Positions 37,810 through 54,432 of a DNA stretch of 64,000 nt are shown here, one piece after another (the first letter of the stretch is position 1; each line of letters begins with the position of its first letter). Source of the stretch: a virus. Taxonomy: Duplodnaviria; Heunggongvirae; Uroviricota; Caudoviricetes. The notes under the pieces were generated by a model. It saw only the letters and a list, made by a program, of their open reading frames with translations. It did no database searches and had not been told where the DNA came from. The stretch lies in the IMG/VR virus record IMGVR_UViG_3300032103_000073, one strand, 5' to 3'. A program made the position numbers and the translations under genes.

Positions 37810-37810
37810 A

Positions 37811-38725: not shown

Positions 38726-38779
38726 ATGTTTATTTAATCAATAGAGCCTGTAAGCTAGAAAAGTCTAATAAATATTTGC

Positions 38780-39568: not shown

Positions 39569-40077
39569 TTATAAGTTGCACTTGAATCTAGTAAAATTTG
39601 CAAAAAAGAAAAATCGCTGTCGCTATTATTTACAAACATCCCTTTTAATGAGCGGTCTATAATAAAAGGTAGTGGCTGAAGATTATGTTTCTCTGCTTTA
39701 CTTTTATCGTTATTGGCACTAAAATAATTAACGTCAATAGTTCCCGGCGTTAGTGGGATATATAACTCAACTGAAGTTTTGACATCATTGACATACAAAT
39801 CGATAAATCCTTTGCGCTTTTTCGGGTGCATATTATAAAGCATTATTCTTGAAATATTTAAATTGCAATTACTTATGAAATTAAAAATCTCGTAAGTGTG
39901 TAATCGATCATATTGGATGAATTTATTTTTAATATTTTTTGAATGGGACCCCCAGTCGAATTGACAAGAAGATCGGTCTTTTATGACCTCTATATCCGAT
40001 TGCAGCAATTGATAAAAATCAACCGAAGCTTTATGGTCTTGAAAAAAAGTTATTGACATTATTCTAAAAAATAACAA
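39481..40077 (-). CDS. hypothetical protein
   Basis: minus-strand ORF in the island. Confidence 0.4.
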   Translation of the reverse strand: MLFFRIMSITFFQDHKASVDFYQLLQSDIEVIKDRSSCQFDWGSHSKNIKNKFIQYDRLHTYEIFNFISNCNLNISRIMLYNMHPKKRKGFIDLYVNDVKTSVELYIPLTPGTIDVNYFSANNDKSKAEKHNLQPLPFIIDRSLKGMFVNNSDSDFSFLQILLDSSATYNYLQDRINSIILAPGSNSHHLPLVPDPKS

Positions 40078-41240: not shown

Positions 41241-41269
41241 AAGTAAGTGTATAATTAACTTTATTTATT

Positions 41270-42196
41270 ATGAACAAAACATTTTTAACACTACTGGGAT
41301 CTCTAATGATTTCCACTTCTCTTTTTGCAAAAGAAAAGATTTCGATTTATTTTCCATATGCAGCCAGCGCAAGTCCGACACCTAGCGTCATACGTATGGT
41401 AGATGAAGCAAATAACTTGCAAGAAAAATATAATTTCCAACTGGTATTTAAACCAGGTGGCAATCAGGGTATTGCAGTGAATTCGATGGATCGAGAACCT
41501 AACAACTCGTTGTCTGTTATTGCGCCTGCTTATGTAGAAAATTACAAAACTAACATGTTTGACAAAAACAATCACGTACCGATATGGTCGATGGGTAATG
41601 CTTGTTGGTTGGTTATTTCTAATTTAGGAGACGAAAAAACAGGATTATCAAGTTTAAAACACGAAAAAGAAATAAATGTCGGCGGGGTCGGCTTTGGTAA
41701 TGCTACACACCTGACTGCACTTGCGTTGGGAGAGAAATATAACATAAAAATAAATTATATTGTTTTCAAATCAAACACAGATGCTCTGATGAATATGGTC
41801 GGAAAAAACGGTATTAACATGGTTATAGATAAAGCAGATAACTATATTAATTTTAAAGAAAAAGGTAATCTTCGTGCATTAGCAGTGAGCTGCAATAAAA
41901 AAATAGGGAAATTGAATTTCGTTAAAACATTAGAAGAACAAAAAATAACAGCGCCTTCAGTTTTTAATATTATTATTGCAAACAAAAATATGCCGATAGA
42001 CTTGCAGCAAGACATCAAGTCTATTTTACAAAAAAGTGCAGAAAACATTGGACAAGATTTTTTCTTAGAACATAGTGGTTTTAGACCTAGTCAATTTGAT
42101 AAAATATCAGAAGACATGTTTTACAACAAATCGTTGCTTTTGTTAGAAGAATTGCTTGCAAAGCATAAATATGCTATAGAACTAAGTAAAAAATAA
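41270..42196 (+). CDS. secreted periplasmic solute-binding-like protein
   Basis: signal peptide plus about 290-aa mature domain. Confidence 0.35.
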   Translation: MNKTFLTLLGSLMISTSLFAKEKISIYFPYAASASPTPSVIRMVDEANNLQEKYNFQLVFKPGGNQGIAVNSMDREPNNSLSVIAPAYVENYKTNMFDKNNHVPIWSMGNACWLVISNLGDEKTGLSSLKHEKEINVGGVGFGNATHLTALALGEKYNIKINYIVFKSNTDALMNMVGKNGINMVIDKADNYINFKEKGNLRALAVSCNKKIGKLNFVKTLEEQKITAPSVFNIIIANKNMPIDLQQDIKSILQKSAENIGQDFFLEHSGFRPSQFDKISEDMFYNKSLLLLEELLAKHKYAIELSKK

Positions 42197-42205
42197 GGAG
42201 ATACT

Positions 42206-42565
42206 ATGTTTACTTTAACGATTACAACAACAAGACCTGATACTTCTGCACCGTTTTTTCCGCATTCGCCGGCTGGGCGTTTATACGAAGAAACTTCGCA
42301 AGAACTAATGTTAGAAAGAAATAGTAGCATGCACAATAAACTCGTAGAGTTTACAAGGGTAGAATCGACTGACCATTTAACATTAATAACGACTCTTGTG
42401 TTTGAAAACGTCGAAGGTAGGAAAATATACGGAGATACGCTACTAAGTAGATTATTAGAAAAAAATCTATTAGCAATAGCATCCGCCAGGGAATTATACA
42501 ATCAAACAGTAAATCACGTCAGTACTGTAGAGGTTAAAAACGAAGGTTCTAATACACCGAATTGA
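42206..42565 (+). CDS. hypothetical protein
   Basis: ORF. Confidence 0.4.
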   Translation: MFTLTITTTRPDTSAPFFPHSPAGRLYEETSQELMLERNSSMHNKLVEFTRVESTDHLTLITTLVFENVEGRKIYGDTLLSRLLEKNLLAIASARELYNQTVNHVSTVEVKNEGSNTPN

Positions 42566-42645
42566 CCCTTATTTGTAAAATAGAGTAAACGACTAAGTCG
42601 TTTACTCAGTAGGCAAGCATAAAATAAAAGATTGCAATGTAGACT

Positions 42646-43389
42646 ATGAGCACACGCTTACCTGTATACGCCCCTTTAAATAATAGATTTACGTTTGATG
42701 CTGCTCGTTTAATTGCAGAAATTAACAGTCTAATTGCAAATCAAGCAGAAGAAAGAACATTACCTTTTGAAAACGGTCGTAGCGTATATGACCCTGCTGG
42801 CCGGCTGCAAATCGCAAGCGATGCCGACTTAAACAACACTACGAAATATGAAATAAACGAACACAGACAACGAGTTAAAATCCCTGGCAAGATTAAAACT
42901 TACCATGTTTTTAACTTAACCTATTTGCCTGAAGAACAAGACAGTCTAATAGATATATATCGAAATAACGATCCTGAGAAAAAGATTTTTTGGCATACTT
43001 ATAAAAAGCCCTTTACGTGGCGTAAAGAATTAGAAAATACTTACATTAAACAGTGCGTGGAACAATTTCCGTGGGAGTATATACAAGGTGTTAGACTAAT
43101 ACATATGTCACCGCCTAGTATTGGACAAATTCATAGAGATAGTCACCCCAGAGATAATCTACGCTATTTTAGAGAAGGTTTTGCCAGTATCAGTTTTAAC
43201 ATAGACTCGGGCAATGGAGTTCTTAAGTATTTAGACGCAGGCGAAGAAAAGCAAGTTAATAATAATGTTAAAATATTTCACTTTGATGACAGTGTTGCCC
43301 ATGGTGTCACTGCAATTTCATCTCCACGCTACCAACTGAGAATGTGGGGGAAATTATCTGTTCCGTATTTGGATTTATTAAATGTTTAA
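42646..43389 (+). CDS. Fe(II)/2OG dioxygenase-like paralog
   Basis: QIHRDSHP ... VAHGVTA (HxD...H). Confidence 0.4.
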   Translation: MSTRLPVYAPLNNRFTFDAARLIAEINSLIANQAEERTLPFENGRSVYDPAGRLQIASDADLNNTTKYEINEHRQRVKIPGKIKTYHVFNLTYLPEEQDSLIDIYRNNDPEKKIFWHTYKKPFTWRKELENTYIKQCVEQFPWEYIQGVRLIHMSPPSIGQIHRDSHPRDNLRYFREGFASISFNIDSGNGVLKYLDAGEEKQVNNNVKIFHFDDSVAHGVTAISSPRYQLRMWGKLSVPYLDLLNV

Positions 43390-43933
43390 AAAACTTGATA
43401 ATTCTTTTTTAAATTTAGAACTAGATTGGAAGTCGTTTATAACAGATGATATATTTACAGAATATTATTCTAAAAAACGCGGCGGCGGTAGCTTCTTTTA
43501 TACCCTGCCTTGTAGTAAGAAAGACTTCTTAAATCTGCAAAAAAAGAATATTTTTACTATCGAACCAACTTTTATCCAGTACTGCGAATTTACCGGTCCC
43601 GGTTTGGTTACTCCGCATATTGACCGAGGGTCAACTGTTGCATTGAACTTTTACCTGGAACCGCAAGGTGATCGCACAATTTTTTATGAAACTACTTTAG
43701 ACTGTGACAGTGGTACCGGGTACCACGGGGATAAATCAAAGTTGTCATATGTAACAGACTTGAGCACCTTAAAAGAAATAGGATCTTTTGTTGCTGCACC
43801 ACTTGACGTTTATTTGCTAGACGTTAACAAATTGCACGGGATAGAAAAAGTAAACGACCTGCCGCGAACAATGATTACCTTCAGGTGGTTTAAACATTCG
43901 TATGAAGAAGTGTTATCAAGCCTGTCCTTATAA
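43382..43933 (+). CDS. Fe(II)/2OG dioxygenase-like paralog
   Basis: TPHIDRGSTVALNFYL ... KLHGIEK (HxD...H). Confidence 0.4.
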   Translation: MFKKLDNSFLNLELDWKSFITDDIFTEYYSKKRGGGSFFYTLPCSKKDFLNLQKKNIFTIEPTFIQYCEFTGPGLVTPHIDRGSTVALNFYLEPQGDRTIFYETTLDCDSGTGYHGDKSKLSYVTDLSTLKEIGSFVAAPLDVYLLDVNKLHGIEKVNDLPRTMITFRWFKHSYEEVLSSLSL

Positions 43934-43938
43934 AATAA

Positions 43939-43967
43939 TTGACACAAAGGCTAAATAGAAGTACAAT
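43939..43967 (+). promoter_or_regulatory. promoter (TTGACA-N17-TACAAT)
   Basis: upstream of tRNA-Thr. Confidence 0.6.
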
Positions 43968-43975
43968 AACAACAT

Positions 43976-44052
43976 TGCTGGATTAGCTCAGTTGGTAGAG
44001 CACTCGCCTTGTAAGCGAAAGGTCGTCAGTTCGAACCCGACATCCAGCACCA
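43976..44052 (+). tRNA. tRNA-Thr (TGT)
   Basis: cloverleaf; loop CTTGTAA; CCA encoded. Confidence 0.8.
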
Positions 44053-44086
44053 AAGTTAAATTTTTTATCTATTTTGCCAAAAGATA

Positions 44087-44115
44087 TTGACACAAGAGAT
44101 AAATAAACTTATAAT
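44087..44115 (+). promoter_or_regulatory. promoter (TTGACA-N17-TATAAT)
   Basis: consensus hexamers. Confidence 0.6.
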
Positions 44116-44164
44116 AGAAGCTTACGTTAACAAAGTTAGCGTAGAAATTTTTAGGAATAACCAA

Positions 44165-44314
44165 ATGCAAACGATTGCGAAACATTTTAGTCAGTTTAGT
44201 TCACAAGCCAAACAGGTGGCAATGCCCACCTATTGGTGTGCTCTAGGCTCTGGCTCTAATGATCGCACACCGGAGATTAGGTCAGGGTTCCATGAAGGAT
44301 CAGGTTACGCATAA
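44165..44314 (+). CDS. hypothetical small protein
   Basis: ATG 44165 after the promoter (track ORF begins at 44087). Confidence 0.35.
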   Translation: MQTIAKHFSQFSSQAKQVAMPTYWCALGSGSNDRTPEIRSGFHEGSGYA

Positions 44315-44337
44315 GTAATCAAAGAATTCAAAAGGAA

Positions 44338-44370
44338 CCCTGGAACTAAAAACTCCAGGGTTTTTGTTTG
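44338..44370 (+). terminator. rho-independent terminator
   Basis: ccctggaactaaaaactccaggg stem plus T-run. Confidence 0.8.
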
Positions 44371-44379
44371 CTGAAAAGG

Positions 44380-44760
44380 AAAAATGATAGACACCGAGAC
44401 AAGAATTAAACAGCAAGCAGAATGGTTGAAGTTGCATACTTTAACTCAGGAGCAAACGAAAGTTTTGATCCAGAACAAGTTAAGGCGTGCAACAGAGATG
44501 CATACTGCTTTAAACAAGCGAGAGGTGCTTTGTAAGCTCCGTTAAAATCGCAAACGTGGGATAGGGAACGCGACCCTGCAGACACGCAAAACACTGCTAG
44601 TAATGTGGGCGGCCTACCCGATGGTAAGTCTATGGTGAGAACGTAGATGTGTAAAACGGTAGAGTATTAAAGTGTATTAGGTCCCACACCAGGCAATTGG
44701 AGCCGAAATGTCGTCTAGTATACTTTAATACACACATTCGAAAGAGTGTGTTAACAAATA
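44380..44760. other. ORF-free structured region (candidate ncRNA)
   Basis: no ORF of 60 aa or more; multiple inverted repeats (e.g. acacacattcgaaagagtgtgt). Confidence 0.35.
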
Positions 44761-44761
44761 T

Positions 44762-44839
44762 GTACGGGTGGCAGAGAGGCCCAATGCAACGGTCTGCAAA
44801 ATCGTAAAACCGTCGGTTCAAATCCGACCCCGTACTCCA
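44762..44839 (+). tRNA. tRNA-Cys (GCA)
   Basis: cloverleaf; loop CTGCAAA. Confidence 0.65.
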
Positions 44840-44845
44840 AATTTA

Positions 44846-44923
44846 GCGTGGTTAGTGTTTAACGGCCTAGCACGACTGGCTTCCACCCAGTAAGAAAGAG
44901 TTCGAATCTCTTACCCCGCACCA
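44846..44923 (+). tRNA. tRNA-Gly (TCC)
   Basis: loop CTTCCAC; one acceptor mismatch. Confidence 0.6.
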
Positions 44924-44928
44924 AATTT

Positions 44929-45004
44929 ATCCTGTTAGTTTATCGGTTTAGAACAGTGGCCTTTCAAGTCGCAGAGACGGGTTCGATTCCCGTACAGGAT
45001 GCCA
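44929..45004 (+). tRNA. tRNA-Glu (TTC)
   Basis: loop CTTTCAA. Confidence 0.7.
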
Positions 45005-45011
45005 AGTTAGT

Positions 45012-45085
45012 AGGGGTATAGTGTAATGGTAGCACAACACACTTTGACTGTGTCGGTCTAGGTTCAAATCCTGGTACCCCCGCCA
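45012..45085 (+). tRNA. tRNA-Gln (TTG)
   Basis: strong similarity to the E. coli tRNA-Gln scaffold; loop CTTTGAC. Confidence 0.75.
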
Positions 45086-45092
45086 ATTTTAT

Positions 45093-45170
45093 CTCTGCGT
45101 AATGTCAATCTGGTAGACGGCCTGATCTGGAGTCAGGAGGCTGTAGGTTCGAATCCTACCGTGGAGACCA
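45093..45170 (+). tRNA. tRNA-Pro (TGG)-like, atypical (C33)
   Basis: anticodon arm CCTGA-TCTGGAG-TCAGG with C at position 33. Confidence 0.5.
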
Positions 45171-45177
45171 ATTTTAT

Positions 45178-45216
45178 ATCTCCGTAGCTCAATCAGGCAG
45201 AACACCGGTTTTGTAT
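45178..45216 (+). pseudogene. truncated tRNA 5' fragment (acceptor, D-arm and anticodon 5' half)
   Basis: ATCTCCGTAGCTCAATCAGGCAGAACACCGGTTTTGTA; no matching 3' half; resembles the 5' half of the tRNA at 49363. Confidence 0.55.
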
Positions 45217-45225
45217 AAATAAGCT

Positions 45226-45855
45226 ATGAACTATATAATTTACAAGACTACAAATCTGCTAAACGGTATGTACTACATTGGTTCTCATCAAACCAATGAC
45301 TTAAATGACGGATACTTAGGTTCGGGTAAACATTTAAAAAGAGCCATTACTAAGTACGGCAGAGAAAATTTTAAATTTGAAATTCTTTACTTTCTTCCCT
45401 CAAAAGAGGAAATGTTTAAAGTAGAACGAGAAATCGTAAATGAATCTTTTGTGCAAGATCCGCTAACGTATAATTTAAAAATCGGTGGTAGCGGAGGGAA
45501 TCCTGGTATTATCGGAGCTTTTTCTGGAAGAAGGCATACCGAAGAAACTAGAGAAAAAATGAGAGTTTCGAGGTCGAAACAAGCGCCCATGTCAGAAACA
45601 AGTAGACAAAAACTTTCAGAAAATAACTGGTCTAAAAGAGATCCCGGCGCGCATAGAGAACACATGCGTAAGATAGCATCTATGCCACGGTCGGAAGAAC
45701 ATAACAAAAAAGTCGCCGAAGCAAACATAGGCAAAACAATAGTTAATAATGGTATTATTGCTAAAAGAATAGATAAGAAAGATTTGAGCTACTATGAAGA
45801 TAGTGTTGGAAAAGAGGCGCAATGCCTCGTAAGAAATAATATGCCCTTAAGATAA
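45226..45855 (+). CDS. GIY-YIG homing endonuclease (Seg-like)
   Basis: IIYKTTNLLNGMYYIGSH...KRAITKYG GIY-YIG module plus basic C-terminal DNA-binding region. Confidence 0.75.
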   Translation: MNYIIYKTTNLLNGMYYIGSHQTNDLNDGYLGSGKHLKRAITKYGRENFKFEILYFLPSKEEMFKVEREIVNESFVQDPLTYNLKIGGSGGNPGIIGAFSGRRHTEETREKMRVSRSKQAPMSETSRQKLSENNWSKRDPGAHREHMRKIASMPRSEEHNKKVAEANIGKTIVNNGIIAKRIDKKDLSYYEDSVGKEAQCLVRNNMPLR

Positions 45856-45915
45856 CGGCAGTCGTCAGGTCTCCAAAACCTTGAAGTCGCGGTTCGAATC
45901 CGTGAGGGTATGCCA
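45841..45915 (+). tRNA. tRNA-Trp (CCA)
   Basis: acceptor ATGCCCT/AGGGTAT; loop CTCCAAA; overlaps the last 15 nt of the endonuclease ORF. Confidence 0.65.
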
Positions 45916-45922
45916 ATTTAAT

Positions 45923-46014
45923 GGAAAGTAATGCAGCGGGGATGGTCCTGCGACTGGCCTTGAAAACCAGGTTCTCAGAAATGGGATGGGGTTCGACTCC
46001 TCTGCTTTCCGCCA
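45923..46014 (+). tRNA. tRNA-Ser (TGA)
   Basis: type II; loop CTTGAAA; resembles E. coli tRNA-Ser. Confidence 0.75.
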
Positions 46015-46184
46015 ATTTTGAGACTGCTCTACGGGCACTGCAATGAACGTAGACAGGTTGTGTGGTGTGTTGGCAGCACAGCGGAAGCGAGTACCTAACA
46101 GAAAAGTTTGCAGACCGAGTAAGTTAGCGAAAGGGGAGCAGGGTTAGGTTCGAATCCTATCACATTTACTCAAATCTAATATAT
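46015..46184 (+). other. unassigned tRNA-like/structured RNA with a T-arm (GGTTCGAATCC)
   Basis: no ORF; T-arm motif at 46143-46159; no consistent acceptor pairing found. Confidence 0.3.
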
Positions 46185-46278
46185 AGTGAGTTGACAGAGT
46201 CTGGCTAATTGTGCCTCCCTGCTAAGGAGTGCGTCCTTGAAAGAGGGCACAAGGGTTCGAATCCCTTGCTCACTGCCA
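46185..46278 (+). tRNA. tRNA-Ser (GCT)
   Basis: type II; loop CTGCTAA; long variable arm. Confidence 0.75.
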
Positions 46279-46310
46279 AGTTGTCGAATGTTAAGATAAA
46301 TAAATTCATG

Positions 46311-46335
46311 CGGCTGTAGCTCAGTTGGTAGATTT
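46311..46335 (+). pseudogene. truncated tRNA 5' fragment (acceptor plus D-arm)
   Basis: GCGGCTGTAGCTCAGTTGGTAGA followed by unrelated sequence and the HNH gene. Confidence 0.5.
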
Positions 46336-46376
46336 ATGCGATAGAGTATAAATACAGTATAGGAGATACTCTACCA

Positions 46377-46763
46377 ATGAAAGCAATTTGCTTACAATGT
46401 AATAAAGATTTTGAATACGGGCATAGTTCCACTGGGAAGTTTTGTAGCAACCAGTGTAGCGGCTTATATAAGAAAACAGAACATAAACAAAAGTTCTTTT
46501 CAGGTTTGTTAAAACGAATTGAACGACCTACAGCAAGGAAATATCTTGCTGAGGAAAGAGGATATAAATGTGAAGTATGTAGCGTAAGTGATTGGCAAGG
46601 CAAGCCAATCACTTTACATGTAGATCATATAAATGGCGATCCGTCAAACGATCACCCAGGTAACTTAAGGTTAATTTGCCCTAACTGCCATAGTCAAACA
46701 GAGTTTTTGGGTGCGGCAAATAAAGGTAGAGGACGCGGTTCATTAGGAATCGCAAAGTATTAA
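46377..46763 (+). CDS. HNH homing endonuclease
   Basis: CxxC ... HVDHINGDPSNDHPGNLRLICPNCH (HNH with zinc ligands). Confidence 0.75.
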   Translation: MKAICLQCNKDFEYGHSSTGKFCSNQCSGLYKKTEHKQKFFSGLLKRIERPTARKYLAEERGYKCEVCSVSDWQGKPITLHVDHINGDPSNDHPGNLRLICPNCHSQTEFLGAANKGRGRGSLGIAKY

Positions 46764-46838
46764 GCAGGATTAATTCAGTGGTAGAATGTCTCGTTGCCAA
46801 CGAGAATGTCGTCGGTTCGAACCCGACATCCTGCTCCA
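46764..46838 (+). tRNA. tRNA-Gly (GCC)
   Basis: loop TTGCCAA; begins one nt after the HNH stop. Confidence 0.8.
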
Positions 46839-47061
46839 AATAACACGGCTCCTATCATTTGCTCATTGAGGAATGCTTGGGAGTTCTTTTATAAACTTCT
46901 AATGAACGCTCTTGCAGATGCCATGCTGGTAAAAAACTTCATGTCAAACTTTAGCGTATACAAATCGAGAACAAAGATATAGCAAACATCATTAGTCTCT
47001 GTCATAGACAAGTGGATTAATAACCCGCCTTTAGTTATAGAGTCGTATGTTTGCATTAAAA

Positions 47062-47138
47062 TATTTATCATGGGTCTTTAACTCAGTTGGATAGAGTGCC
47101 AGTCTTCGAAACTGGAAGTCGTGGGTTCGAATCCTGCA
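47062..47138 (+). tRNA. tRNA-Arg (TCG)
   Basis: loop CTTCGAA. Confidence 0.7.
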
Positions 47139-47163
47139 AGACCCGCCAATTATAAATATTAAC

Positions 47164-47760
47164 ATGATACTAAAGTACAGAGATCCAAGATTTTATTCTG
47201 TAGATTCGTTGAAGTGCTGGAAAAATGTCAACGTTCCTTTAAATGTTGTTCATCCCGATGCAACTATAGACATTAGATCAAATAGTTTGAAAGAAATATT
47301 GCTTCCATTATCTGCAATAGATCCCAATTTTAAATTATGGTTAGCAGAACTAGGATTAGAAATTTCCCTAGTAAGATTGTTTATTGCTAGTGCAAATTAC
47401 GAGTATACAAAACATGTAGATCGTCAAACATTTAACGACCAGTCAGTGGCGTTAAATTTTGCCTTCGATGACACTGGCACTGTTTTTTCATGGCATAATT
47501 TAAATAAAGATGGCAGGATCGAAGTTACAAAAAATAAAAACAATATCCCGATTTGGAATTTTTCCAACTGTGCTACTGTTTTGGCAGAAGAAATTAAACA
47601 TCGAGAAAATCAGCCGTTTTTAGTCAACACTGGATATATTCATTCTTTAAAAGTTGGCAATCAGGACAGACATTGTTATAGTTATTTCCTGCGGAAAGCC
47701 GGTACAGCCGTTCCGTTGCAATGGGATGATGCAATAATAGCATTTGACAGATTTATATAA
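47164..47760 (+). CDS. Fe(II)/2OG dioxygenase-like paralog
   Basis: KHVDRQ...LNFAFDD...NTGYIHSL; paralog of 52449. Confidence 0.45.
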   Translation: MILKYRDPRFYSVDSLKCWKNVNVPLNVVHPDATIDIRSNSLKEILLPLSAIDPNFKLWLAELGLEISLVRLFIASANYEYTKHVDRQTFNDQSVALNFAFDDTGTVFSWHNLNKDGRIEVTKNKNNIPIWNFSNCATVLAEEIKHRENQPFLVNTGYIHSLKVGNQDRHCYSYFLRKAGTAVPLQWDDAIIAFDRFI

Positions 47761-47764
47761 TTAA

Positions 47765-47839
47765 CTCGCTGTAGTTCAATGGATAGAACAGTTCTCTCCT
47801 AAAGAATAGATCCAAGAATCGAACTTGGTGGCGAGACCA
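47765..47839 (+). tRNA. tRNA-Arg (CCT)
   Basis: loop CTCCTAA; unusual T-loop AATCGAA. Confidence 0.6.
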
Positions 47840-47853
47840 TAAAGGAGATCGTA

Positions 47854-48027
47854 TGAAAACACTTTACTTTGAAAATATTCGCAACCGCGAACGCTTTTAT
47901 TGTAAAAACGCTCGAGACATACATATGATCGACGGCATTGAATACATGAAAGTTTTTAGACTGGGAACGCAACGCGAAGTTCTTGTTAAACGAGAATCTC
48001 TCAAGAAAGTTGCAGAGCCCAAGTAAG
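47854..48027 (+). CDS. hypothetical small protein (57 aa)
   Basis: SD AAAGGAG plus ATG. Confidence 0.35.
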
Positions 48028-48101
48028 GCTGCTATAGTATAATGGTATTACATACCCTTGGTAAGGGTAAAACACAAGTTCAATTCTTGTTAGCAGCACC
48101 A
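48028..48101 (+). tRNA. tRNA-Thr (GGT)
   Basis: loop TTGGTAA. Confidence 0.8.
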
Positions 48102-48105
48102 TTAA

Positions 48106-48134
48106 TTGACACAAAATAGAGAACATGCTACAAT
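48106..48134 (+). promoter_or_regulatory. promoter (TTGACA-N17-TACAAT)
   Basis: drives leader A and the tRNA-like at 48347. Confidence 0.6.
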
Positions 48135-48139
48135 AGATA

Positions 48140-48346
48140 CAAGTTAAGAAATTAACTGTTTTGATAGATGTTGTTGGGAGCGATCCCCCACAACAGAGAT
48201 GTAAGGTCCTCAACTGCGAGGCGTTAGCAACATTTATCATCTTGTTCTTTAAAAATTTGCAGTGTTGTTTAGGCTGATTGACGGCAATCGAAAAGCAGTC
48301 TGAGTCTTGTCCCCGGCGCACCGCTTTGCCGAGCGTACCGCAGGGA
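48140..48346 (+). other. structured leader A (candidate small RNA), homologous to leader B
   Basis: shared 5' box AGAT(A/G)(C/T)AAGTTAAG(A/C)AATTAACT and a GGGA(A)GCGATC hairpin. Confidence 0.4.
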
Positions 48347-48420
48347 GTCTCTATAGTGTAAGGGTAGCACGCCAGCTTGTAAGAGTTGGAGGATTGGGTT
48401 CGAATCCCAATAGAGTTTAA
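48347..48420 (+). tRNA. tRNA-Gln-scaffold paralog with an 8-nt anticodon loop (TTGTAAGA); no CCA
   Basis: D-arm and T-arm nearly identical to the tRNA-Gln at 45012; stem CCAGC/GTTGG encloses 8 nt. Confidence 0.4.
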
Positions 48421-48453
48421 CAAGACATCAGCCTAAACAACATTGCAAATAAG

Positions 48454-48482
48454 TAGACACAAATTCTTGTGTTTGCTATAAT
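48454..48482 (+). promoter_or_regulatory. promoter (TAGACA-N17-TATAAT)
   Basis: drives leader B and tRNA-Glu. Confidence 0.5.
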
Positions 48483-48489
48483 AGATGTA

Positions 48490-48641
48490 AGTTAAGCAAT
48501 TAACTTACTTGCTCTTTAAAAAGTTCATCCAACATATAAGTCGCTGGGAAGCGATCATTATATGCAAACACATTAGATCAGCTACCGGCGAAGGGAGTAA
48601 CCGGCGATTGTTAAAGTGAGTGTGTTTACATATAATGTTTT
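48490..48641 (+). other. structured leader B (candidate small RNA)
   Basis: homologous to leader A. Confidence 0.4.
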
Positions 48642-48716
48642 ACTCGGTTCGTCTATCGGTTAGGACGACAGCCTTTCAAGTTGTAAAGACGGGTTCGATT
48701 CCCGTACCGAGTACCA
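48642..48716 (+). tRNA. tRNA-Glu (TTC), second copy
   Basis: loop CTTTCAA; T-arm identical to the copy at 44929. Confidence 0.7.
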
Positions 48717-49362
48717 AAAATAATCGTAGCGGTTGATGAGACTGATTAAACAAGTCAACTGAATAATCTCCCACAGATCAGTTGTAAAGGAGAACGTCTA
48801 AACACTAAGGCAATGCTTAGTACTATAGTAGATGGAAACCGACCCCTGTCAGAGCGCGGGGGCTTTTACAGTGTTTATAGTAGAGTAGGAAGTATCCGAA
48901 GCGACTTAGTTAGGATGCAGCCAACAGACCAACATTGACCGCGTAGATAGTCCGGACTATCGCTTGAAACGGAAGATGCGTCCACCCCCTGCCCTGCTTT
49001 ACTATAAACACTGTGAACGATGCGAAAGTAAGTCGGTCCAGTAGGGTAAGGAAAAGTATTGCTAGCGGAAAGAGCTGCCGAAGGACAGAAGTTAGTCCCG
49101 CATGGCAATGACTAATGCGGATAGGCTAACGCCGTGTAATCCTTCAAGAATTTGCTAACACAGGGTGGATTTACATGCCGATGTGTTTAATGTTGTTTAA
49201 AACCGAGCAGTGTGCCTTATCAGCGCAATAGTTAGACTCTACCTGGCAACAGCAAACCAAATGTAAGATAGTTGCTATCGCGTCCTGCAGGTAAGTTAGC
49301 AACCGTAACATCACGGACGGGCGTATTTTATGCCGTGTAATCAAATGCGACTCAGTAATTTA
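48717..49362 (+). other. about 640-nt ORF-free structured region (candidate ribozyme or ncRNA; group-I-intron-like P7 elements)
   Basis: AGATAGTCCGGACTA (48947-48961) and GTTAGTCCCGCATGG / GACTAATGCGGATA about 140 nt downstream; G/C-rich helices. Confidence 0.35.
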
Positions 49363-49437
49363 GCTCTGTTATTTCATGTGGTAGAATACCGGTTTTGTAG
49401 TCCGGAGAGGGCAGTTCAAGTCTGTCACGGAGCACCA
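49363..49437 (+). tRNA. tRNA with anticodon arm CCGGT-TTTGTAG-TCCGG (TGT, Thr-like; U:U closing pair)
   Basis: cloverleaf with CCA; anticodon assignment uncertain. Confidence 0.5.
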
Positions 49438-49503
49438 TATTAAAACACATTACTAAGAGTCCAGGTTCATAGCGTGGCCTAGTGTGTTTTAATATGTTTA
49501 TGT

Positions 49504-49581
49504 CCGGGTGTAGCGCAGTCTGGTTAGCGCATCTGCTTTGGGAGCAGAGGGTCGTGAGTTCGAATCCCACCACCCGGACCA
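49504..49581 (+). tRNA. tRNA-Pro (TGG)
   Basis: loop TTTGGGA. Confidence 0.75.
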
Positions 49582-49590
49582 AGTTTATGT

Positions 49591-49668
49591 TGGGGTATAG
49601 CTTAGTTTGGCCTAAAGCAACGGTCTTTGAAATCGTGATCACTGGTTCGAATCCAGTTACCTCTGCCA
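49591..49668 (+). tRNA. tRNA-Gln (TTG), second copy
   Basis: loop CTTTGAA; U1:U72. Confidence 0.6.
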
Positions 49669-49724
49669 AGTTTTAGGAGAATCGCGTAAGCGTATTCTTA
49701 ATCGACCCAGTATCAGGGCGTCCT

Positions 49725-49752
49725 GACATTAGTATTTTTTGGGGGCAGCAGC
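49725..49752 (+). terminator. hairpin plus T-run (weak terminator)
   Basis: tcagggcgtcctga ... tttttt. Confidence 0.35.
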
Positions 49753-49827
49753 GGGCTGCGGTGATCCCTTGCAAGGATCATGACTAGAAGGGTTCAACTC
49801 CCTCGGCCTCCACCAAACAATGCCCGG
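49753..49827 (+). tRNA. tRNA-Ala (TGC)-like
   Basis: G3:U70; loop CTTGCAA; atypical D region and 8-nt variable loop; T-loop TTCAACT. Confidence 0.5.
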
Positions 49828-49833
49828 TTAATT

Positions 49834-49907
49834 AAATGGTATAATACACCCCTGATAAGGGTGAATCACTGGATCGTAACCAGTACTGGGTACCAATGTT
49901 AGTTAGA
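49834..49907 (+). tRNA. tRNA-Ile (GAT)
   Basis: loop CTGATAA. Confidence 0.7.
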
Positions 49908-49948
49908 GCATTCTGTTGATCTATGATAAATAATATTATGGAGACAAT

Positions 49949-50542
49949 ATGTTTTGTAAATTTTGCAACAAAGAATGTAAGAATAAGAATAGTCTAGTAA
50001 ACCATGAGCGTTTATGTCCAGCGAACCCTGACAGAAAATATGTGTCACACACGCTAGGTAAAAACGGTCATGTCGCTTGGAATAAAGGACTGTCCAAAGA
50101 AACTTCTAGATCTTTGGCACAGTTAAGTGAAACACATAAGCGAAACGGTCACGGTGGCTGGTCTAAGAAAGCTAGTTCCAACGGAGGCAAAGCAGGTGGC
50201 GGATATCGTGAAAATGCAGGAAGAAGTAAGAAATTCAAAGTAGTCGATTCTTTCGACAAAACGGTGTGCTTGCAAAGCACATACGAACTTAGATGCAGTC
50301 GACTATTGAATGAGTTGGGCATTAAGTGGATAAGACCATCAGCATTAAAGTATGATAGTAAAAATTATTTTGCTGATTTTTATTTACCGGAGTATGATTT
50401 GTATCTAGATCCAAAGAATAATTATAAAGCAAAATTGGATACTGACAAAATCAATAAAGTAAAAGAACAAAATAATGTAAGAGTTGTGATTCTCACTGAG
50501 GATCAGTTGACTCAAGATTATATAAAAAGCCTTTGTAGTTAA
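49949..50542 (+). CDS. zinc-finger protein, possible homing-endonuclease-like
   Basis: N-terminal CKFC...HERLC zinc finger; basic middle region; inserted between tRNAs. Confidence 0.35.
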   Translation: MFCKFCNKECKNKNSLVNHERLCPANPDRKYVSHTLGKNGHVAWNKGLSKETSRSLAQLSETHKRNGHGGWSKKASSNGGKAGGGYRENAGRSKKFKVVDSFDKTVCLQSTYELRCSRLLNELGIKWIRPSALKYDSKNYFADFYLPEYDLYLDPKNNYKAKLDTDKINKVKEQNNVRVVILTEDQLTQDYIKSLCS

Positions 50543-50602
50543 ATGGTATAACGGTCGCTTGATAAGCGATTATTACAAGTTCAATTCTTGTCGAAGGCAC
50601 CA
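50529..50602 (+). tRNA. tRNA-Ile (GAT)-like, second copy
   Basis: loop TTGATAA; overlaps the preceding ORF's 3' end. Confidence 0.55.
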
Positions 50603-50841
50603 AGTTTTGTAGCGTTAGCAAGAGAAAAGTACCAATTCGTGTAGCTGGCCAGCGAAAGAGGAGGTAAAACAGGAGGGGGTTCAACTCCCCACCGCGGGTA
50701 GCCATGCGGTAGCTGGAATGGAGCATCTGACCAAGTATCCCAAGTAACAAGTCCTGGAAGAACTCGACGTAAGGAAGTCCGGCTCTGTACGTCTAAACAC
50801 TAGTGATAAACCTGAGGACGCTAGGCTACAAATTAATTTAT
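50603..50841 (+). other. ORF-free structured region with a tmRNA-type T-arm motif (GGGGGTTCAACTCCCC)
   Basis: motif at 50667-50682; no CCA end. Confidence 0.3.
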
Positions 50842-50917
50842 TCCCCAGTAGCACAGCGGTAGTTGCGCCTGACTGTTAATCAGGATGTCCGTGGTTCGAT
50901 CCCACGCTGGGGAGCCA
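50842..50917 (+). tRNA. tRNA-Asn (GTT)
   Basis: loop CTGTTAA. Confidence 0.75.
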
Positions 50918-50971
50918 ATTAATAAACACATTGCCGAGCGACGAAGGAAATGAGTAGTGTGTTTTTTAATT

Positions 50972-51061
50972 GGAGAGTGTTCCCGTCAGCGGCCTGTAAA
51001 GTCGTTGTCCTTAATTTGGCGGGTGGCTGGACAGATGGTTCGATTCCTTCACTCTTCACCA
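50972..51061 (+). tRNA. tRNA-Tyr (GTA)-like, atypical (reduced D-arm, about 28-nt variable arm)
   Basis: acceptor GGAGAGT/ACTCTTC; anticodon arm GCGGC-CTGTAAA-GTCGT as in E. coli tRNA-Tyr. Confidence 0.45.
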
Positions 51062-51066
51062 ATTTT

Positions 51067-51141
51067 GGCCTTGTCATATAGTGGTTATTATACCGGTCTG
51101 TCTAATCGGATATCGGGGTTCGATTCCCCGCAAGGTCGCCA
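51067..51141 (+). tRNA. tRNA-Asp (GTC)
   Basis: loop CTGTCTA (U37). Confidence 0.6.
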
Positions 51142-51148
51142 GTTTAAT

Positions 51149-51225
51149 GCGTCTGTAGCTCAGTTGGATAGAGTACTTGGCTACGAACCAAGGGGTCGTG
51201 GGTTCGAATCCTGCCAGACGCGCCA
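51149..51225 (+). tRNA. tRNA-Arg (ACG)
   Basis: loop CTACGAA. Confidence 0.8.
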
Positions 51226-51230
51226 AATAT

Positions 51231-51307
51231 GCCAATGTAGCTCAGACGGTAGTAGCAGCGGATTGAAAATCCGCGTGTCGGTGGTTCGATTCCACTCGTT
51301 GGCACCA
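51231..51307 (+). tRNA. tRNA-Phe (GAA)
   Basis: loop TTGAAAA. Confidence 0.8.
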
Positions 51308-51453
51308 GTTAAGGGATAGACGGTACGATGAGTCCCACACAACCTAGCATTGGGTCTAGCAATGCGAAACGGCAGATCGGTTGAAGTGGTTGTATAAACT
51401 CTTGTATGCGAGACAATCCGGTAAGGTCTGCGGGAACAGACGAGCTGGGCTCC
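51308..51453 (+). other. ORF-free structured spacer (candidate ncRNA)
   Basis: no ORF; G/C-rich hairpins. Confidence 0.3.
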
Positions 51454-51530
51454 CAATCTATATGCCTTGGTGACGGAATTGGTATACGTGCTTGACTCAA
51501 AATCAAGATTCTGTGGGTTCGAGTCCCACC
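51454..51530 (+). tRNA. class-I (short variable arm) tRNA with Leu anticodon CAA
   Basis: arm CTTGA-CTCAAAA-TCAAG; 4-nt variable loop. Confidence 0.55.
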
Positions 51531-51531
51531 C

Positions 51532-51560
51532 AAGGTACCAGTTGACACAAAATAGCAGAT
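51532..51560 (+). promoter_or_regulatory. promoter (TTGACA-N17-TATAAT) plus SD and 7-codon mini-ORF (MKRSGKR)
   Basis: AACAGGAG then ATG 51585 and stop 51606. Confidence 0.55.
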
Positions 51561-51681
51561 GCTATATAATTTAATTTTAAACAGGAGTATGATATGAAAC
51601 GTTCAGGTAAACGATAGTGTCATCCTAGACCCCGTAATTGGTCTGGGTTGGCACGTAAAAGAAAATGTAATTTACGACTAA

Positions 51682-51755
51682 CCCTTCGAGATGTTATGGT
51701 TGCATAGCGGACTCTTAATCCGACAAGTGACGGTTCAAATCCGTCCGGAGGGACC
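51682..51755 (+). tRNA. tRNA-Lys (CTT)
   Basis: loop CTCTTAA; 4-bp anticodon stem. Confidence 0.6.
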
Positions 51756-51761
51756 AATTAT

Positions 51762-51835
51762 GGGATTGAAGCTTTAAGGTGAAGCAACGGACTTTTAATC
51801 CGTAGATCTGGGATCGTTGGCCCAGCAGTCCTACC
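51762..51835 (+). tRNA. tRNA-Lys (TTT)
   Basis: loop CTTTTAA; atypical T-loop. Confidence 0.65.
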
Positions 51836-51956
51836 ATATAAAAACACATTATTAGTTCAGTAGAGAACGATAACAGGCCATCTTTTGGTAGATCAGTATG
51901 TTATAGGACAACAGATGAAATTTCTGTTATAGTGTGTTTCTATATGGTATTTTTAT
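51836..51956 (+). other. spacer with hairpin and T-runs (terminator-like)
   Basis: aacagatgaaatttctgtt hairpin. Confidence 0.3.
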
Positions 51957-52032
51957 GCAGCGTTTAGTGGAGTGGTTACCATACTTGTCTGTGAAACAAG
52001 TGAGAACGGTTCGAATCCGTAACGTCTGCCCA
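51957..52032 (+). tRNA. tRNA-His (GTG) with G-1 and a bulged U in the acceptor 3' strand
   Basis: loop CTGTGAA; G-1:C73. Confidence 0.55.
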
Positions 52033-52227
52033 AACAATATTTTTTGTTAAGCTGTAGTTTAAATGAAAGCCTGAGTGTTTCCCGACGGGGATTAGCAAGG
52101 GACGCGGTAAGTTAGTAGACAAAAACGACAATGGGCCCTGCGTTGTTGGCGGCTACTGATGATGACAATAGAATAACGTCCGCGGAGGACGAGGTGCTCA
52201 GAGTTGAGCCAGCTTTACAAAGAATAT
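52033..52227 (+). other. ORF-free structured region (candidate ncRNA)
   Basis: 195 nt, no ORF. Confidence 0.3.
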
Positions 52228-52303
52228 GGTGATGTAGCTCAGTTGGTAGAGTACCTCCTTCATACGGAGAGTGTCGGCGGTTCAAGTCCGTCCATCACCA
52301 CCA
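52228..52303 (+). tRNA. tRNA-Met (CAT), elongator-like
   Basis: loop TTCATAC. Confidence 0.7.
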
Positions 52304-52310
52304 AATATAA

Positions 52311-52437
52311 TCTGTAGGTGCTGAAACGGTAGACAGCAGACGGCAGTCTGTGTAAAGGGTTCGAATCCCTTGGAAGTCCGCAAGACTTTTAGTATGGTAC
52401 TATTGGTGGTTCGAGTCCATCCCTGCAGACCAAATAA
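52311..52437 (+). ncRNA. about 125-nt tRNA-like element (acceptor CTGTAGG/CCTGCAG, CCA, two T-arm-like hairpins)
   Basis: 7-bp terminal pairing, D-arm-like helix, internal AAGGGTTCGAATCCCTT and GGTGGTTCGAGTCCATC. Confidence 0.4.
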
Positions 52438-52448
52438 ATAAATAGTCA

Positions 52449-53051
52449 ATGGAACAAAAATTTTTATTTGCAGAAAAGTCAAAATGTTTTAGACACATCA
52501 CTATGCCGTTTACCTTTATTCAACCGCATGTTCCTATCGATCTGACTAGCATTACTTCTCCTAAGGAAATACACATTAATATCAATTCAGTAGACGCCTG
52601 TTTTATAACATGGTTGCATAATCTAGGTTTGTATTCACTCCATCCTAGGTTATTTGTTACTCCGCCTGGGACAAAATACAATATCCATGTTGATATTTTG
52701 TTCCCGCGAGAAAATACTGCTACTTATTTAAATTTTCCGTTTAATGACGCTGGTTCATTTATGAGGTGGTTTAATTTAAAAAACGAAAAAAATGCTTATA
52801 TAACAACTACTAGTGTAGAAGACAAAAAATTTCAAGTTATTAATGCAAACGAAGATGATTGCTCTGTTATCGAAATTATGCACGCGCCCGGCAATTCTCC
52901 TATATTAGTTAATGCCGGTTACTTACATGATTTAACGAATCCGAGTAATTTCAGACATTGTTGGAGTTTCCCTTTGCTAAAATTAATCGACAACACACGA
53001 ATAAATTGGGACGAAGCAGTGGAGATTTTTTCCTCTTACATTAAAAATTAA
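52449..53051 (+). CDS. Fe(II)/2OG dioxygenase-like paralog
   Basis: IHVDIL...LNFPFNDAG...NAGYLHDL. Confidence 0.45.
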   Translation: MEQKFLFAEKSKCFRHITMPFTFIQPHVPIDLTSITSPKEIHININSVDACFITWLHNLGLYSLHPRLFVTPPGTKYNIHVDILFPRENTATYLNFPFNDAGSFMRWFNLKNEKNAYITTTSVEDKKFQVINANEDDCSVIEIMHAPGNSPILVNAGYLHDLTNPSNFRHCWSFPLLKLIDNTRINWDEAVEIFSSYIKN

Positions 53052-53574
53052 CAGGTAAGTCAAATATTCGAATCAGTAGCATCACTCGCATATTTGGAGA
53101 TTTGTTTTCTACTCTATGCGGAACTTTAACCGATAGCAAATAAGGCACAGAAGTTTCGTGAGATTCTATTAACTTACAATCATCCGGGTAGTACCTGAAA
53201 AAATGATGAGTTTTTCCTTTATTTTCTACTGTTACTACGTGCGGGTTTGCTAGCGTGTTATAAAAATTTATCCAAGTATTTTCGCACCCAGAAATGGGAA
53301 TGTTTAAACTATATCGGTAAGGACCGCTGTCCATATGATAATTTCCGTTGTCATATCCCATTGTTACATTTATTGCAACCTGGCCTACGCAATGGTTGGG
53401 TAATTTTAGATCATTAATTACTTTTTTGATAGACGGAAGTGTTAAAAAAACATCTTTGTTATTTTCTATATAAGTTAAATTAGTAGAAAGCAAAAGGTGT
53501 TTGGGTATAGACATCAATACTTCGTTTTGTATGTCTGTGAGATTTTCTATATGTATTTCTCTAAAAGGAGCCAT
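53041..53574 (-). CDS. Fe(II)/2OG dioxygenase-like paralog
   Basis: YHMDSGPYRYSLNIPISGCENTWINF...VPHRVEN; paralog of 18783. Confidence 0.45.
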   Translation of the reverse strand: MAPFREIHIENLTDIQNEVLMSIPKHLLLSTNLTYIENNKDVFLTLPSIKKVINDLKLPNHCVGQVAINVTMGYDNGNYHMDSGPYRYSLNIPISGCENTWINFYNTLANPHVVTVENKGKTHHFFRYYPDDCKLIESHETSVPYLLSVKVPHRVENKSPNMRVMLLIRIFDLPVNF

Positions 53575-54195
53575 ACTAGTATTTATAAAATATCTCGCAG
53601 ATCAAGTTTATGTGGCGTGTATAGGTCATACACGATTTCTGGCAGTTGAAGTGACAGGAGTAATTATCCTGAGAACGATACTGGTGCTGGGAGGTAACGT
53701 TGCCCGGCGAGAAATCCGAGATTGTTTGCGTTCGAGTCGCAAACGCTACACACAAAGTTTCTTGCAAGAAGAACAGAGGTACGGTGGTCCTACTTGAGTG
53801 GGGACTATAAAAGCCGACAAACGCCTGGGGTACAACTCCATACGCTCAGCCAAATAAGGCGGATTCTGTTTCTCCGTAACAGCCCTAGCAGGCACCTGAA
53901 AAGGACTTGGGACAGCGTATTGCTACATCGACGACGAAATGTCGAGCTGGAGAATGTAACCAGCATCCATAGTCAATAACATTCATCATTGGTAGATAGC
54001 CTTAAGCGGTTGGCAAACCGGGACTACACTACGAAGCAGCTTAGCCAGCGCGATGAAAAGACCCTTTACGTCGAGAGTGTTATTGACTATGGTCCACAAG
54101 GGTGGTATGTAGGCAACGTGGATTTGCCGAGGACCGGGATTCCTTAACTAGCCAACAACTAGTGCCATATAGTATATTGGTATTACATTTATAAT
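53575..54195 (+). other. about 620-nt ORF-free structured region (candidate ncRNA or ribozyme)
   Basis: no ORF of 100 aa or more; AGGTAACGTTGCCCGG; AACCGGGACTAC / CATAGTC elements. Confidence 0.35.
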
Positions 54196-54270
54196 GTCCG
54201 GTTATTTCAGCGGTAGAATACTTCCATGACACGGAAGAGGTCACTGGTTCGATCCCAGTACCGGACACCA
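54196..54270 (+). tRNA. tRNA-Val (GAC)
   Basis: loop ATGACAC. Confidence 0.7.
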
Positions 54271-54271
54271 A

Positions 54272-54300
54272 TTGACACAAAATCACAGAACAACTATAAT
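54272..54300 (+). promoter_or_regulatory. promoter (TTGACA-N17-TATAAT)
   Basis: upstream of the tRNA at 54304. Confidence 0.6.
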
Positions 54301-54303
54301 AAC

Positions 54304-54380
54304 AACTAATAATGCCCCGGTGGTGGAATTGGTAGACACGCTACGTTGAGGTCGTAGCATTTGCAGGTTCGAGTCCTGTC
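54304..54380 (+). tRNA. class-I tRNA with Leu anticodon GAG (G37)
   Basis: 5' half resembles E. coli tRNA-Leu (TGGTGGAATTGGTAGACAC) but the variable loop is only 4-5 nt. Confidence 0.55.
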
Positions 54381-54432
54381 CAGGGTACCATTGAATGTAA
54401 AGTTAAATACATATGTAAACAAAGGAGTAATC

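Follow-up and report, generated by a model that had tools for sequence, protein, structure and literature searches.

The DNA analysed here is a stretch of 64,000 nucleotides (the window) from the IMG/VR record IMGVR_UViG_3300032103_000073, a virus of the class Caudoviricetes. It carries an array of about 33 tRNA genes, all on the plus strand and nearly all with an encoded CCA, interspersed with small open reading frames (ORFs) and homing-endonuclease genes (Table 1). Two members of the array have the leucine anticodons CAA and GAG, and the long variable arm, which is the class II hallmark of the tRNA-Leu isotype, is absent from both. We consider it very likely that the two genes are functional leucine isoacceptors of a large phage, which would be charged by the host's leucyl-tRNA synthetase (LeuRS) and would read UUG and CUC/CUU codons.

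Both genes were called by ARAGORN and by the Rfam tRNA model (gathering score 29), in agreement with an earlier note on this DNA that had described two short-armed tRNAs with leucine anticodons CAA and GAG. The true genes lie 10 bases downstream of the coordinates given there, but the anticodon arms that it quoted (CTTGA-CTCAAAA-TCAAG and CTACG-TTGAGGT-CGTAG, the latter with G37) are present in the sequences. Each gene is 77 nt long and consists of a 74-nt body followed by CCA. In the cloverleaf, the acceptor stem has 7 bp and is followed by U8, and the D-stem has 3 bp with G13.A22 and a AAUUGGUA(U/G) D-loop. The anticodon stem of 5 bp carries a 7-nt loop and the T-stem, also of 5 bp, a TTCGAGT loop; the discriminator is A73. 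The variable loop, for which 4-5 nt had been claimed, is 5 nt long in both genes (AUUCU in Leu(CAA), CAUUU in Leu(GAG)). An overlooked long arm is ruled out by the gene length and by the clean gap in the alignment with Escherichia coli leuU. Leu(CAA) features G1-U72, the D-loop AAUUGGUAU and an A36A37A38 run, and its minimum-free-energy fold is the cloverleaf. Leu(GAG) has G1-U72 as well, together with G36G37, and its acceptor stem contains a C5.A68 mismatch. The best matches of the two genes were found at the IMG/VR loci L080 (91% identity to Leu(CAA)) and L113 (88% to Leu(GAG)). A36A37A38 is the sequence context of MiaA and G36G37 that of TrmD. Judged from the sequence, the anticodon-loop contexts of both genes fit normal leucine decoders, in which position 37 would probably be modified.

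The identity set of E. coli LeuRS (PMC6614811) is present as a whole in both tRNAs, namely A73, U8-A14, A15-U48, G18G19 and U54-A58. G18G19 is placed in the AAUUGGUA D-loop next to a Leu-type 3-bp D-stem, and both anticodons match leucine codons. For a direct comparison with a cellular gene, leuU was taken from the RefSeq E. coli genome, in which it follows secG. The alignment with Leu(GAG) contains a single clean 10-nt gap at the variable arm (15 nt in leuU, 5 nt in Leu(GAG)), and 67 of the 77 bases of the window gene are identical. Identity is complete from U8 through position 30, a stretch that takes in the D-arm in full and four bases at the start of the anticodon stem. The two genes also share the anticodon loop UUGAGGU, G1-U72 and A73. 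The 5' strand of the acceptor stem matches at five of seven positions, while the T-stem sequence differs. The alignment confirms the similarity to E. coli tRNA-Leu that the earlier note had pointed out for this gene. Leu(GAG) is nearer to a cellular leuU-type gene than to the type found in phage T5. Leu(CAA) had no match at E<=1 in a blastn search of E. coli genomes, a database too large for a query of 77 nt. When the anticodon was masked, the nearest 50 neighbours of either gene, out of 1459 distinct phage tRNAs covering all isotypes, were without exception tRNA-Leu, in a database that is enriched in class-I tRNA-Leu by the way it was collected; ten of the 50 neighbours of Leu(GAG) are class II.

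The codons that the two tRNAs would read are in frequent use. In 66 ORFs of the window TTG is the commonest leucine codon (25.5%) and CTT and CTC contribute 20.7%, so that UUG and CUC/CUU account for about 46% of the leucine codons. The AGY codons, read by the tRNA-Ser(GCU) of the array, are the most used serine class in the same ORFs. The earlier note had considered that the pair might be charged with another amino acid, in which case UUG and CUY would be read differently in phage genes. The missing arm, a textbook mark of bacterial tRNA-Leu, speaks for such a reassignment, as does the presence in the window of genes for IF3 and for an RF1-like protein with an in-frame TGA. It is contradicted by the masked neighbours described above and by the alignment of the window ClpX with five phage homologues, a small sample of 11 sites. 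In this alignment leucine makes up 70% of the homologue residues at TTG sites (97% for L, I, V, M and F together) and 84% at CTT and CTC sites, compared to 51% to 71% at the other leucine codons and a leucine background of 9.8%. UUG and CUY thus align with leucine or other hydrophobic residues in the same way as the other four leucine codons, and no sign of reassignment was found at these sites. TGA is an ordinary stop codon, ending 28 of 86 long ORFs of the window. Alanyl-tRNA synthetase requires G3-U70, seryl-tRNA synthetase (SerRS) the long arm and histidyl-tRNA synthetase G-1, and other synthetases need their own anticodons. Neither tRNA possesses G3-U70, a long arm or G-1. Furthermore, the same tRNA body occurs in other phages with five or six different anticodons (UAG, UAA, CAA, GAG and CAG, as well as AAG at locus L003), which have only leucine in common. 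We therefore regard mischarging or reassignment as highly improbable.

Short tRNA-Leu genes proved to be common in phages when the INPHARED database was searched with blastn, and they are already annotated as tRNA-Leu. The 77-nt Leu-UAG of Vibrio phage JSF10 is 87% identical to the Leu(CAA) of the window, and the 77-nt Leu-GAG of Stenotrophomonas phage DLP_6 is 73% identical to the Leu(GAG). In T5_ev212 (LR597659.1) both Leu genes, including Leu-UAA, are 77 nt long, compared to 89-95 nt for its three Ser genes and 91 nt for its Tyr gene. The T5-like phage OSYSP (MF402939.1), whose whole 110.9-kb genome was scanned with ARAGORN, has exactly two Leu genes, both 77-nt class I, and its Ser and Tyr genes are long. 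In a 636-kb uncultured phage, two Leu genes of class II stand next to two of class I. The statement in the earlier note that bacterial tRNA-Leu is invariably class II is consequently false: class-I genes are present in all of these phages and in more than 100 IMG/VR contigs, and a biochemical characterisation has been published for a type-I tRNA-Leu(CAA) from Streptomyces coelicolor (PMC6614811). This is also the only paper on type I tRNA-Leu that a full-text literature search returned; the search yielded no paper on class-I tRNA-Leu in phages as such.

The distribution of the short form was determined by scanning for D-loops of the Leu type that are spaced from the T-loop as in class I, a pattern present in at least 120 IMG/VR contigs. 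Among the matches listed, 102 of the 117 pattern-bearing tRNAs called by ARAGORN have leucine anticodons (UAG 51, UAA 30, CAA 15, GAG 4, CAG 2). For cellular genomes, sampled as one genome per bacterial and archaeal species, only four of 115 listed pattern tRNAs are Leu, while 96 are tRNA-Trp and 12 are tRNA-Asn; three of the four sit in arrays of 10-34 tRNAs within 8 kb. The resulting leucine shares (87% viral, 3.5% cellular) stem from pattern-selected, listed matches and are indicative rather than a census. Among these matches, the arm-less tRNA-Leu belongs in essence to viruses and to mobile arrays of tRNAs. Both classes of tRNA-Leu are encoded in 35 of the 120 fetched IMG/VR stretches. The same Leu-type D-loop pattern with class-I spacing was also observed in tRNA-His(GTG), of which at least 12 were found in viral contigs (loci L005-L124).

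The window pair and 63 further sequences, 65 distinct 74-nt members in total, align without gaps. Standard pairs of the shared class-I cloverleaf are formed in 98.7% of cells; in shuffles the share is 66.5%, and in slid controls it does not exceed 44%. Changes on both sides of a pair, i.e. compensatory changes, occur in 20 of 20 pairs, and the covariation score is 0.911 (0.263 in shuffles, at most 0.17 in slid controls). T8, A14, A15, G18, U48 and A73 are invariant. Based on this covariation, the class-I Leu family consists of selected, working tRNAs and not of debris. With their 74-nt body, the 5-nt variable loop ending in U48, the Leu-type D-arm and A73, both window genes are new members of this family, which is annotated in databases but little discussed. 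The family appears to have been derived from ordinary class-II tRNA-Leu through deletion of the variable arm. An arrangement like that of the window was found in the related 252-kb IMG/VR contig of locus L101, whose array of 33 tRNAs includes the same Leu(caa) and Leu(gag) pair, both 77 nt long. The two arrays are partly syntenic, with the adjacencies Val(gac)-Leu(gag), Lys(ctt)-Lys(ttt) and His-Met in common.

These data also bear on the view that the two genes are decaying pseudogenes, or false calls caused by a deletion in former class-II genes. The C5.A68 mismatch of Leu(GAG) would fit such decay, and the array does hold at least one degenerate tRNA-like gene (48346-48419). However, the Rfam scores of both genes are high, the architecture is identical in 65 distinct sequences with the compensatory changes mentioned above, and a predicted consensus promoter lies directly upstream of Leu(GAG). 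The pair 5-68 is moreover the least constrained of the family and is unpaired in eight of the 65 members. Decay or miscalling is hence extremely unlikely.

Compared to the Leu genes of T5, OSYSP, JSF10 and DLP_6, the window pair has the same 74-nt body with encoded CCA, 5-nt variable loop ending in U48, D-loop AAUUGG(U/C/A)A, 3-bp D-stem and A73. Positions 13 and 22 are unpaired in all of them, with G.A in most family members. The tRNA-Ser genes of these arrays are likewise still class II, as is tRNA-Tyr in the T5-like phages. The anticodons differ (UAA and UAG in T5 and OSYSP, CAA and GAG in the window), the window pair is only 57-71% identical to the T5 and OSYSP genes, and the window phage is uncultured and much larger than these phages. 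The type-I tRNA-Leu(CAA) of S. coelicolor is, from its description, similar in its 5-nt variable loop, its CAA anticodon and the class-II isoacceptors alongside it. A bacterial LeuRS charges it with leucine, and U8-A14 is an identity element in common, but it is a cellular gene with the variable loop ACAGC, and A73 is no identity element for the S. coelicolor enzyme (PMC6614811). Animal mitochondrial tRNA-Leu shares the short variable loop and A73 (PMC6614811). It belongs to another lineage with its own synthetase and is not known to have the Leu-type bacterial D-arm.

That the pair represents leucine isoacceptors without a variable arm, one of the options of the earlier note, is supported by structure, identity elements, family membership, covariation and codon meaning. 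On this reading the genes would be transcribed within the phage tRNA array, Leu(GAG) from its own consensus promoter, and would be matured by host enzymes with the CCA already encoded. Host LeuRS would then charge both with leucine, as the bacterial enzyme reads A73 and the core shape (U8-A14, A15-U48, the position of G18G19, U54-A58) rather than the anticodon or the long arm, and the charged tRNAs would decode UUG (CAA) and CUC/CUU (GAG). The single LeuRS of S. coelicolor charges its type-I tRNA-Leu(CAA) (PMC6614811). In Aquifex, the main effect of deleting the arm is a lower affinity, and the arm 'can be reduced in size' (PMC2377443). In recoded E. coli, an anticodon-swapped tRNA-Leu(CGA) derived from a phage (GenBank MF402939.1) 'decodes TCG codons as leucine' (PMC13596443). 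Since this OSYSP-derived tRNA inserts leucine and both OSYSP Leu genes are class I, we infer that the class-I phage body is leucylated in E. coli whatever its anticodon.

Several observations weigh against this interpretation. E. coli LeuRS failed to charge the type-I tRNA-Leu(CAA) of S. coelicolor, and the leucine-specific domain of the E. coli enzyme is said to favour a large variable region (PMC6614811). Therefore, tolerance of a short arm by LeuRS is not automatic. The assignment of the tRNA of the recoded strain to a class-I OSYSP gene was inferred from the accession number rather than from a printed sequence. The C5.A68 mismatch of Leu(GAG), the composition of the nearest-neighbour database and the pattern-based selection behind the viral and cellular shares count on the same side.

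With regard to the cause of the missing arm, bacterial SerRS and tyrosyl-tRNA synthetase (TyrRS) depend on the long arm and LeuRS does not. Leu is short and Ser long in the window, T5 and OSYSP alike, and Tyr is long as well in the two T5-like phages. Apart from Leu, tRNA-Ser(gct) is the one class-II isotype that was called in the window, and it has kept its long arm; it serves as an internal comparator and demonstrates that the array does not shorten every long-arm isotype. The most economical explanation is that an arm deletion is tolerated in Leu alone because LeuRS needs no arm, while SerRS and TyrRS use theirs.

An adaptive escape could have acted in addition. Host anti-phage nucleases that recognise or cut the class-II variable arm would favour its loss, and an arm-less Leu would serve as a nuclease-proof replacement that sustains translation of the phage once the tRNA-Leu of the host has been destroyed. 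Because this idea concerns why the arm is missing, it is compatible with a working tRNA-Leu; we regard it as possible but rather unlikely. Septu and retron-Eco7 cut E. coli tRNA-Tyr within the variable arm, and T5 tRNA-Tyr was reported to be resistant owing to its distinctive variable loop (PMC13096335, PMC11555353). The strong enrichment of class-I Leu in viral over cellular sequence among the matches listed is in line with escape, as is the joint presence of both classes in the IMG/VR stretches mentioned above, where the short form is no mere replacement. The authors of the recoded-strain study also speculate that their viral tRNA-Leu is nuclease-resistant (PMC13596443). On the other hand, no nuclease directed against tRNA-Leu or its arm was found in the literature searched. 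The bacterial Schlafen studied so far cleaves Lys, Met, Ala and further tRNAs within their anticodon arm and is not specific to type-II tRNAs (PMC13056530), and HepS targets Thr, Ile and Ser. Type-II-specific Schlafen-like cleavage was rejected as a driver on the basis of these targets. That Ser and Tyr have retained their arms in the same phages has a simpler explanation in the needs of the synthetases.

The phage tRNAs for which evasion of a tRNA-targeting defence is described (T5 tRNA-Lys against PARIS, T5 tRNA-Tyr against retron-Eco7, T6 tRNA-Tyr against Septu) are all phage copies of a host isoacceptor, as are the genes described here, and in the retron-Eco7 case the variable region is the part that matters. 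In these cases the nuclease and its cut site are known, whereas in the window the whole arm is gone and the literature searched gave no matching nuclease. T5 tRNA-Lys and tRNA-Tyr escape by sequence differences with the architecture kept, and T6 overcomes Septu by amplification of its tRNA-Tyr gene. Differences in the anticodon loop, which would be a signature of nuclease escape, were not observed for Leu(GAG), whose loop is identical to that of E. coli leuU, although the tRNA of the true host may differ. The earlier note had also listed decoys for a host anticodon nuclease as an option; the identical loop gives no sign of such an escape, and nucleases acting on the variable arm of class-II tRNAs do exist (PMC13096335). 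The broader proposal that arm loss is a recurrent, selected counter-defence against class-II-arm nucleases, of the kind that PtuAB of Septu and retron-Eco7 represents for tRNA-Tyr, with Leu as the one isotype whose synthetase tolerates the removal, is judged unlikely.

The two genes could also be pure decoys or sponges, which would occupy a tRNA-targeting enzyme of the host and take no part in translation. Other non-decoding tRNA-like sequences are indeed found in the window, one with an 8-nt loop at 48346-48419 and an acceptor/T-arm mimic at 52312-52435. The two Leu genes, however, have kept the acceptor stem, A73, the encoded CCA, a 7-nt loop with U33 and the A36A37A38 or G36G37 context, all of which are under purifying selection across the family, and their anticodons match the most used leucine codons of the phage. 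A pure decoy function is thus very improbable.

Taken together, the pair in the window represents ordinary members of a family that is annotated as tRNA-Leu in many GenBank records, including T5-like phages. This family runs counter to the textbook rule by which tRNA-Leu of the bacterial type belongs to class II, and is hard to square with a published finding that E. coli LeuRS accepts type-II tRNA-Leu alone. It is almost confined to viral sequence among the matches listed and would, by way of OSYSP, be the scaffold of the 'viral tRNA-Leu' used in virus-resistant recoded E. coli. Should the counter-defence proposal be true, class-I tRNA-Leu would be a sequence marker of immunity directed at tRNA-Leu, and the proposal would explain why the viral tRNA-Leu outperforms cellular tRNAs in recoded E. 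coli. The questions raised here apply to the family as a whole, namely its viral enrichment, the type-II restriction of E. coli LeuRS and the choice between neutral streamlining and nuclease evasion.

Table 1 Features of the window mentioned in the text; positions are those of the 64,000-nt stretch
Feature	Position	Strand	Evidence or remark
tRNA-Leu(CAA), class I	51464..51540	+	ARAGORN; Rfam tRNA model 63.1 bits, E 2.4e-11
tRNA-Leu(GAG), class I	54314..54390	+	ARAGORN; Rfam tRNA model 51.4 bits, E 4.1e-8
tRNA array with both Leu genes	37652..54390	+	32 ARAGORN calls and one Rfam-only tRNA-Arg(CCU)
tRNA-Ser(GCU), class II, 94 nt	46185..46278	+	ARAGORN
Sigma-70 consensus promoter (predicted)	54272..54300	+	TTGACA, 17-nt spacer, TATAAT; 12/12 consensus positions, consensus match only
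Second sigma-70 consensus promoter (predicted)	51542..51570	+	12/12 consensus positions, consensus match only
ClpX	403-1641	+	
IF3 homologue	1598-2137	+	
ClpP	25624-26241	+	
TilS-like PP-loop ATPase	37000-37617	+	PF01171
RF1-like ORF	55281-55952	+	PPT tripeptide motif, GGQ, Pfam PCRF and RF-1 domains
GIY-YIG and HNH homing-endonuclease-like ORFs	45226-45855, 46377-46763, 54433-54993	+	

The first of the two predicted promoters ends 13 nt upstream of Leu(GAG). The second begins 2 nt after the CCA of Leu(CAA), faces the Lys tRNAs downstream and has the same TTGACACAAAAT start as the first. With many small plus-strand ORFs and a G+C content of about 42%, the window is phage-like, and ClpX, IF3 and ClpP are cellular-type translation and proteolysis genes in this phage context. 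The window ClpX is about 55% identical to ClpX of Sinorhizobium phage Phosso and Agrobacterium phage Atu_ph07 (about 470-490 kb), and its exact sequence was found on contigs of the public sequencing run SRR4101184. A megablast search of positions 51000-55000 against INPHARED gave only a 53-bp tRNA match and no near-identical phage. The window is thus part of a large, uncultured phage that carries a set of translation-related genes.

The TilS-like gene ends 35 nt before a tRNA with a CAT anticodon (37652-37728, plus strand), whose anticodon arm resembles that of tRNA-Ile2; the region 37000-37728 looks like a phage pair of lysidine synthase and tRNA-Ile(CAU). The RF1-like ORF is devoid of the N-terminal domain and contains an in-frame TGA (55386-55388), which we take to align with a Trp of E. 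coli RF1. Readthrough, autoregulation or a pseudogene are possible explanations for this codon. Recoding of TGA or TAG throughout the window was rejected, given the TGA-terminated long ORFs noted above and the conserved genes, which are intact under code 11. The last of the endonuclease ORFs starts 43 nt after tRNA-Leu(GAG). SegB-type endonucleases of T-even tRNA regions have been reported to amplify tRNA genes under defence pressure (PMC13096335).

Several further elements were observed in the array. An RNA of about 130 nt (53967-54098, plus strand) lies within the ORF-free stretch 53575-54195 and is closed by a 15-bp stem (CCATAGTCAATAACA / TGTTATTGACTATGG). Homologues were found in three IMG/VR contigs (L051 4699-4828, L093 7439-7565, L081 around 8860-8914); all four copies are located inside a tRNA array on the tRNA strand, and the L051 copy exactly fills the gap between two tRNAs. 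RNAalifold predicted 40 pairs for the four sequences, 16 of them with compensatory changes. The element is reminiscent of the stable RNAs other than tRNAs that the tRNA cluster of T4 encodes. A tRNA-like element at 52312-52435 (plus strand), called neither by ARAGORN nor by Rfam, has ACCA after an acceptor stem of 7 bp (CTGTAGG/CCTGCAG). It further comprises a D-arm resembling that of Leu, a hairpin with a tetraloop in place of the anticodon arm, and two T-arm-like and further hairpins. Its fold has a z-score of -2.3, and no homologue was found among the fetched loci. An Rfam search of 52250-54250 at E<=1 gave nothing credible for this element or for the 620-nt ORF-free stretch.

The sequence at 48346-48419 (plus strand) was reported by ARAGORN as 'tRNA-???' with the 4-base anticodon gtaa and reaches 46.4 bits with the Rfam tRNA model. 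It is class-I and Tyr-like (GUA), with an 8-nt anticodon loop, no encoded CCA, the discriminator U and mismatches at the top of the acceptor stem. It could be either a gene that has degenerated or a tRNA-like RNA that does not decode. A 108-nt intergenic element at 50733-50840 (plus strand) is 86% identical to sequences in L124, L065 and L052. The element and its relatives lie between tRNA-Ile(gat) and the next tRNA, abutting the 5' end of the latter, and it may be another array-embedded RNA. The two tRNA finders disagreed at four places on the plus strand: tRNA-Arg(CCU) at 47765-47836 (region 47765-47839) was found only by Rfam (45.7 bits), and Ser(gct) at 46185-46278, Trp(cca) at 45841-45915 and Ala(tgc) at 49741-49815 only by ARAGORN. 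Finally, ARAGORN called a 'tRNA-Ile(tat)' of 90-94 nt in four loci (L009 4722-4815, L064 1438-1529, L101 12199-12290, L249 3805-3896). Such lengths, found in unrelated phage arrays, are unusual for a class-I isotype and could reflect an intron, an extra arm or a miscall.

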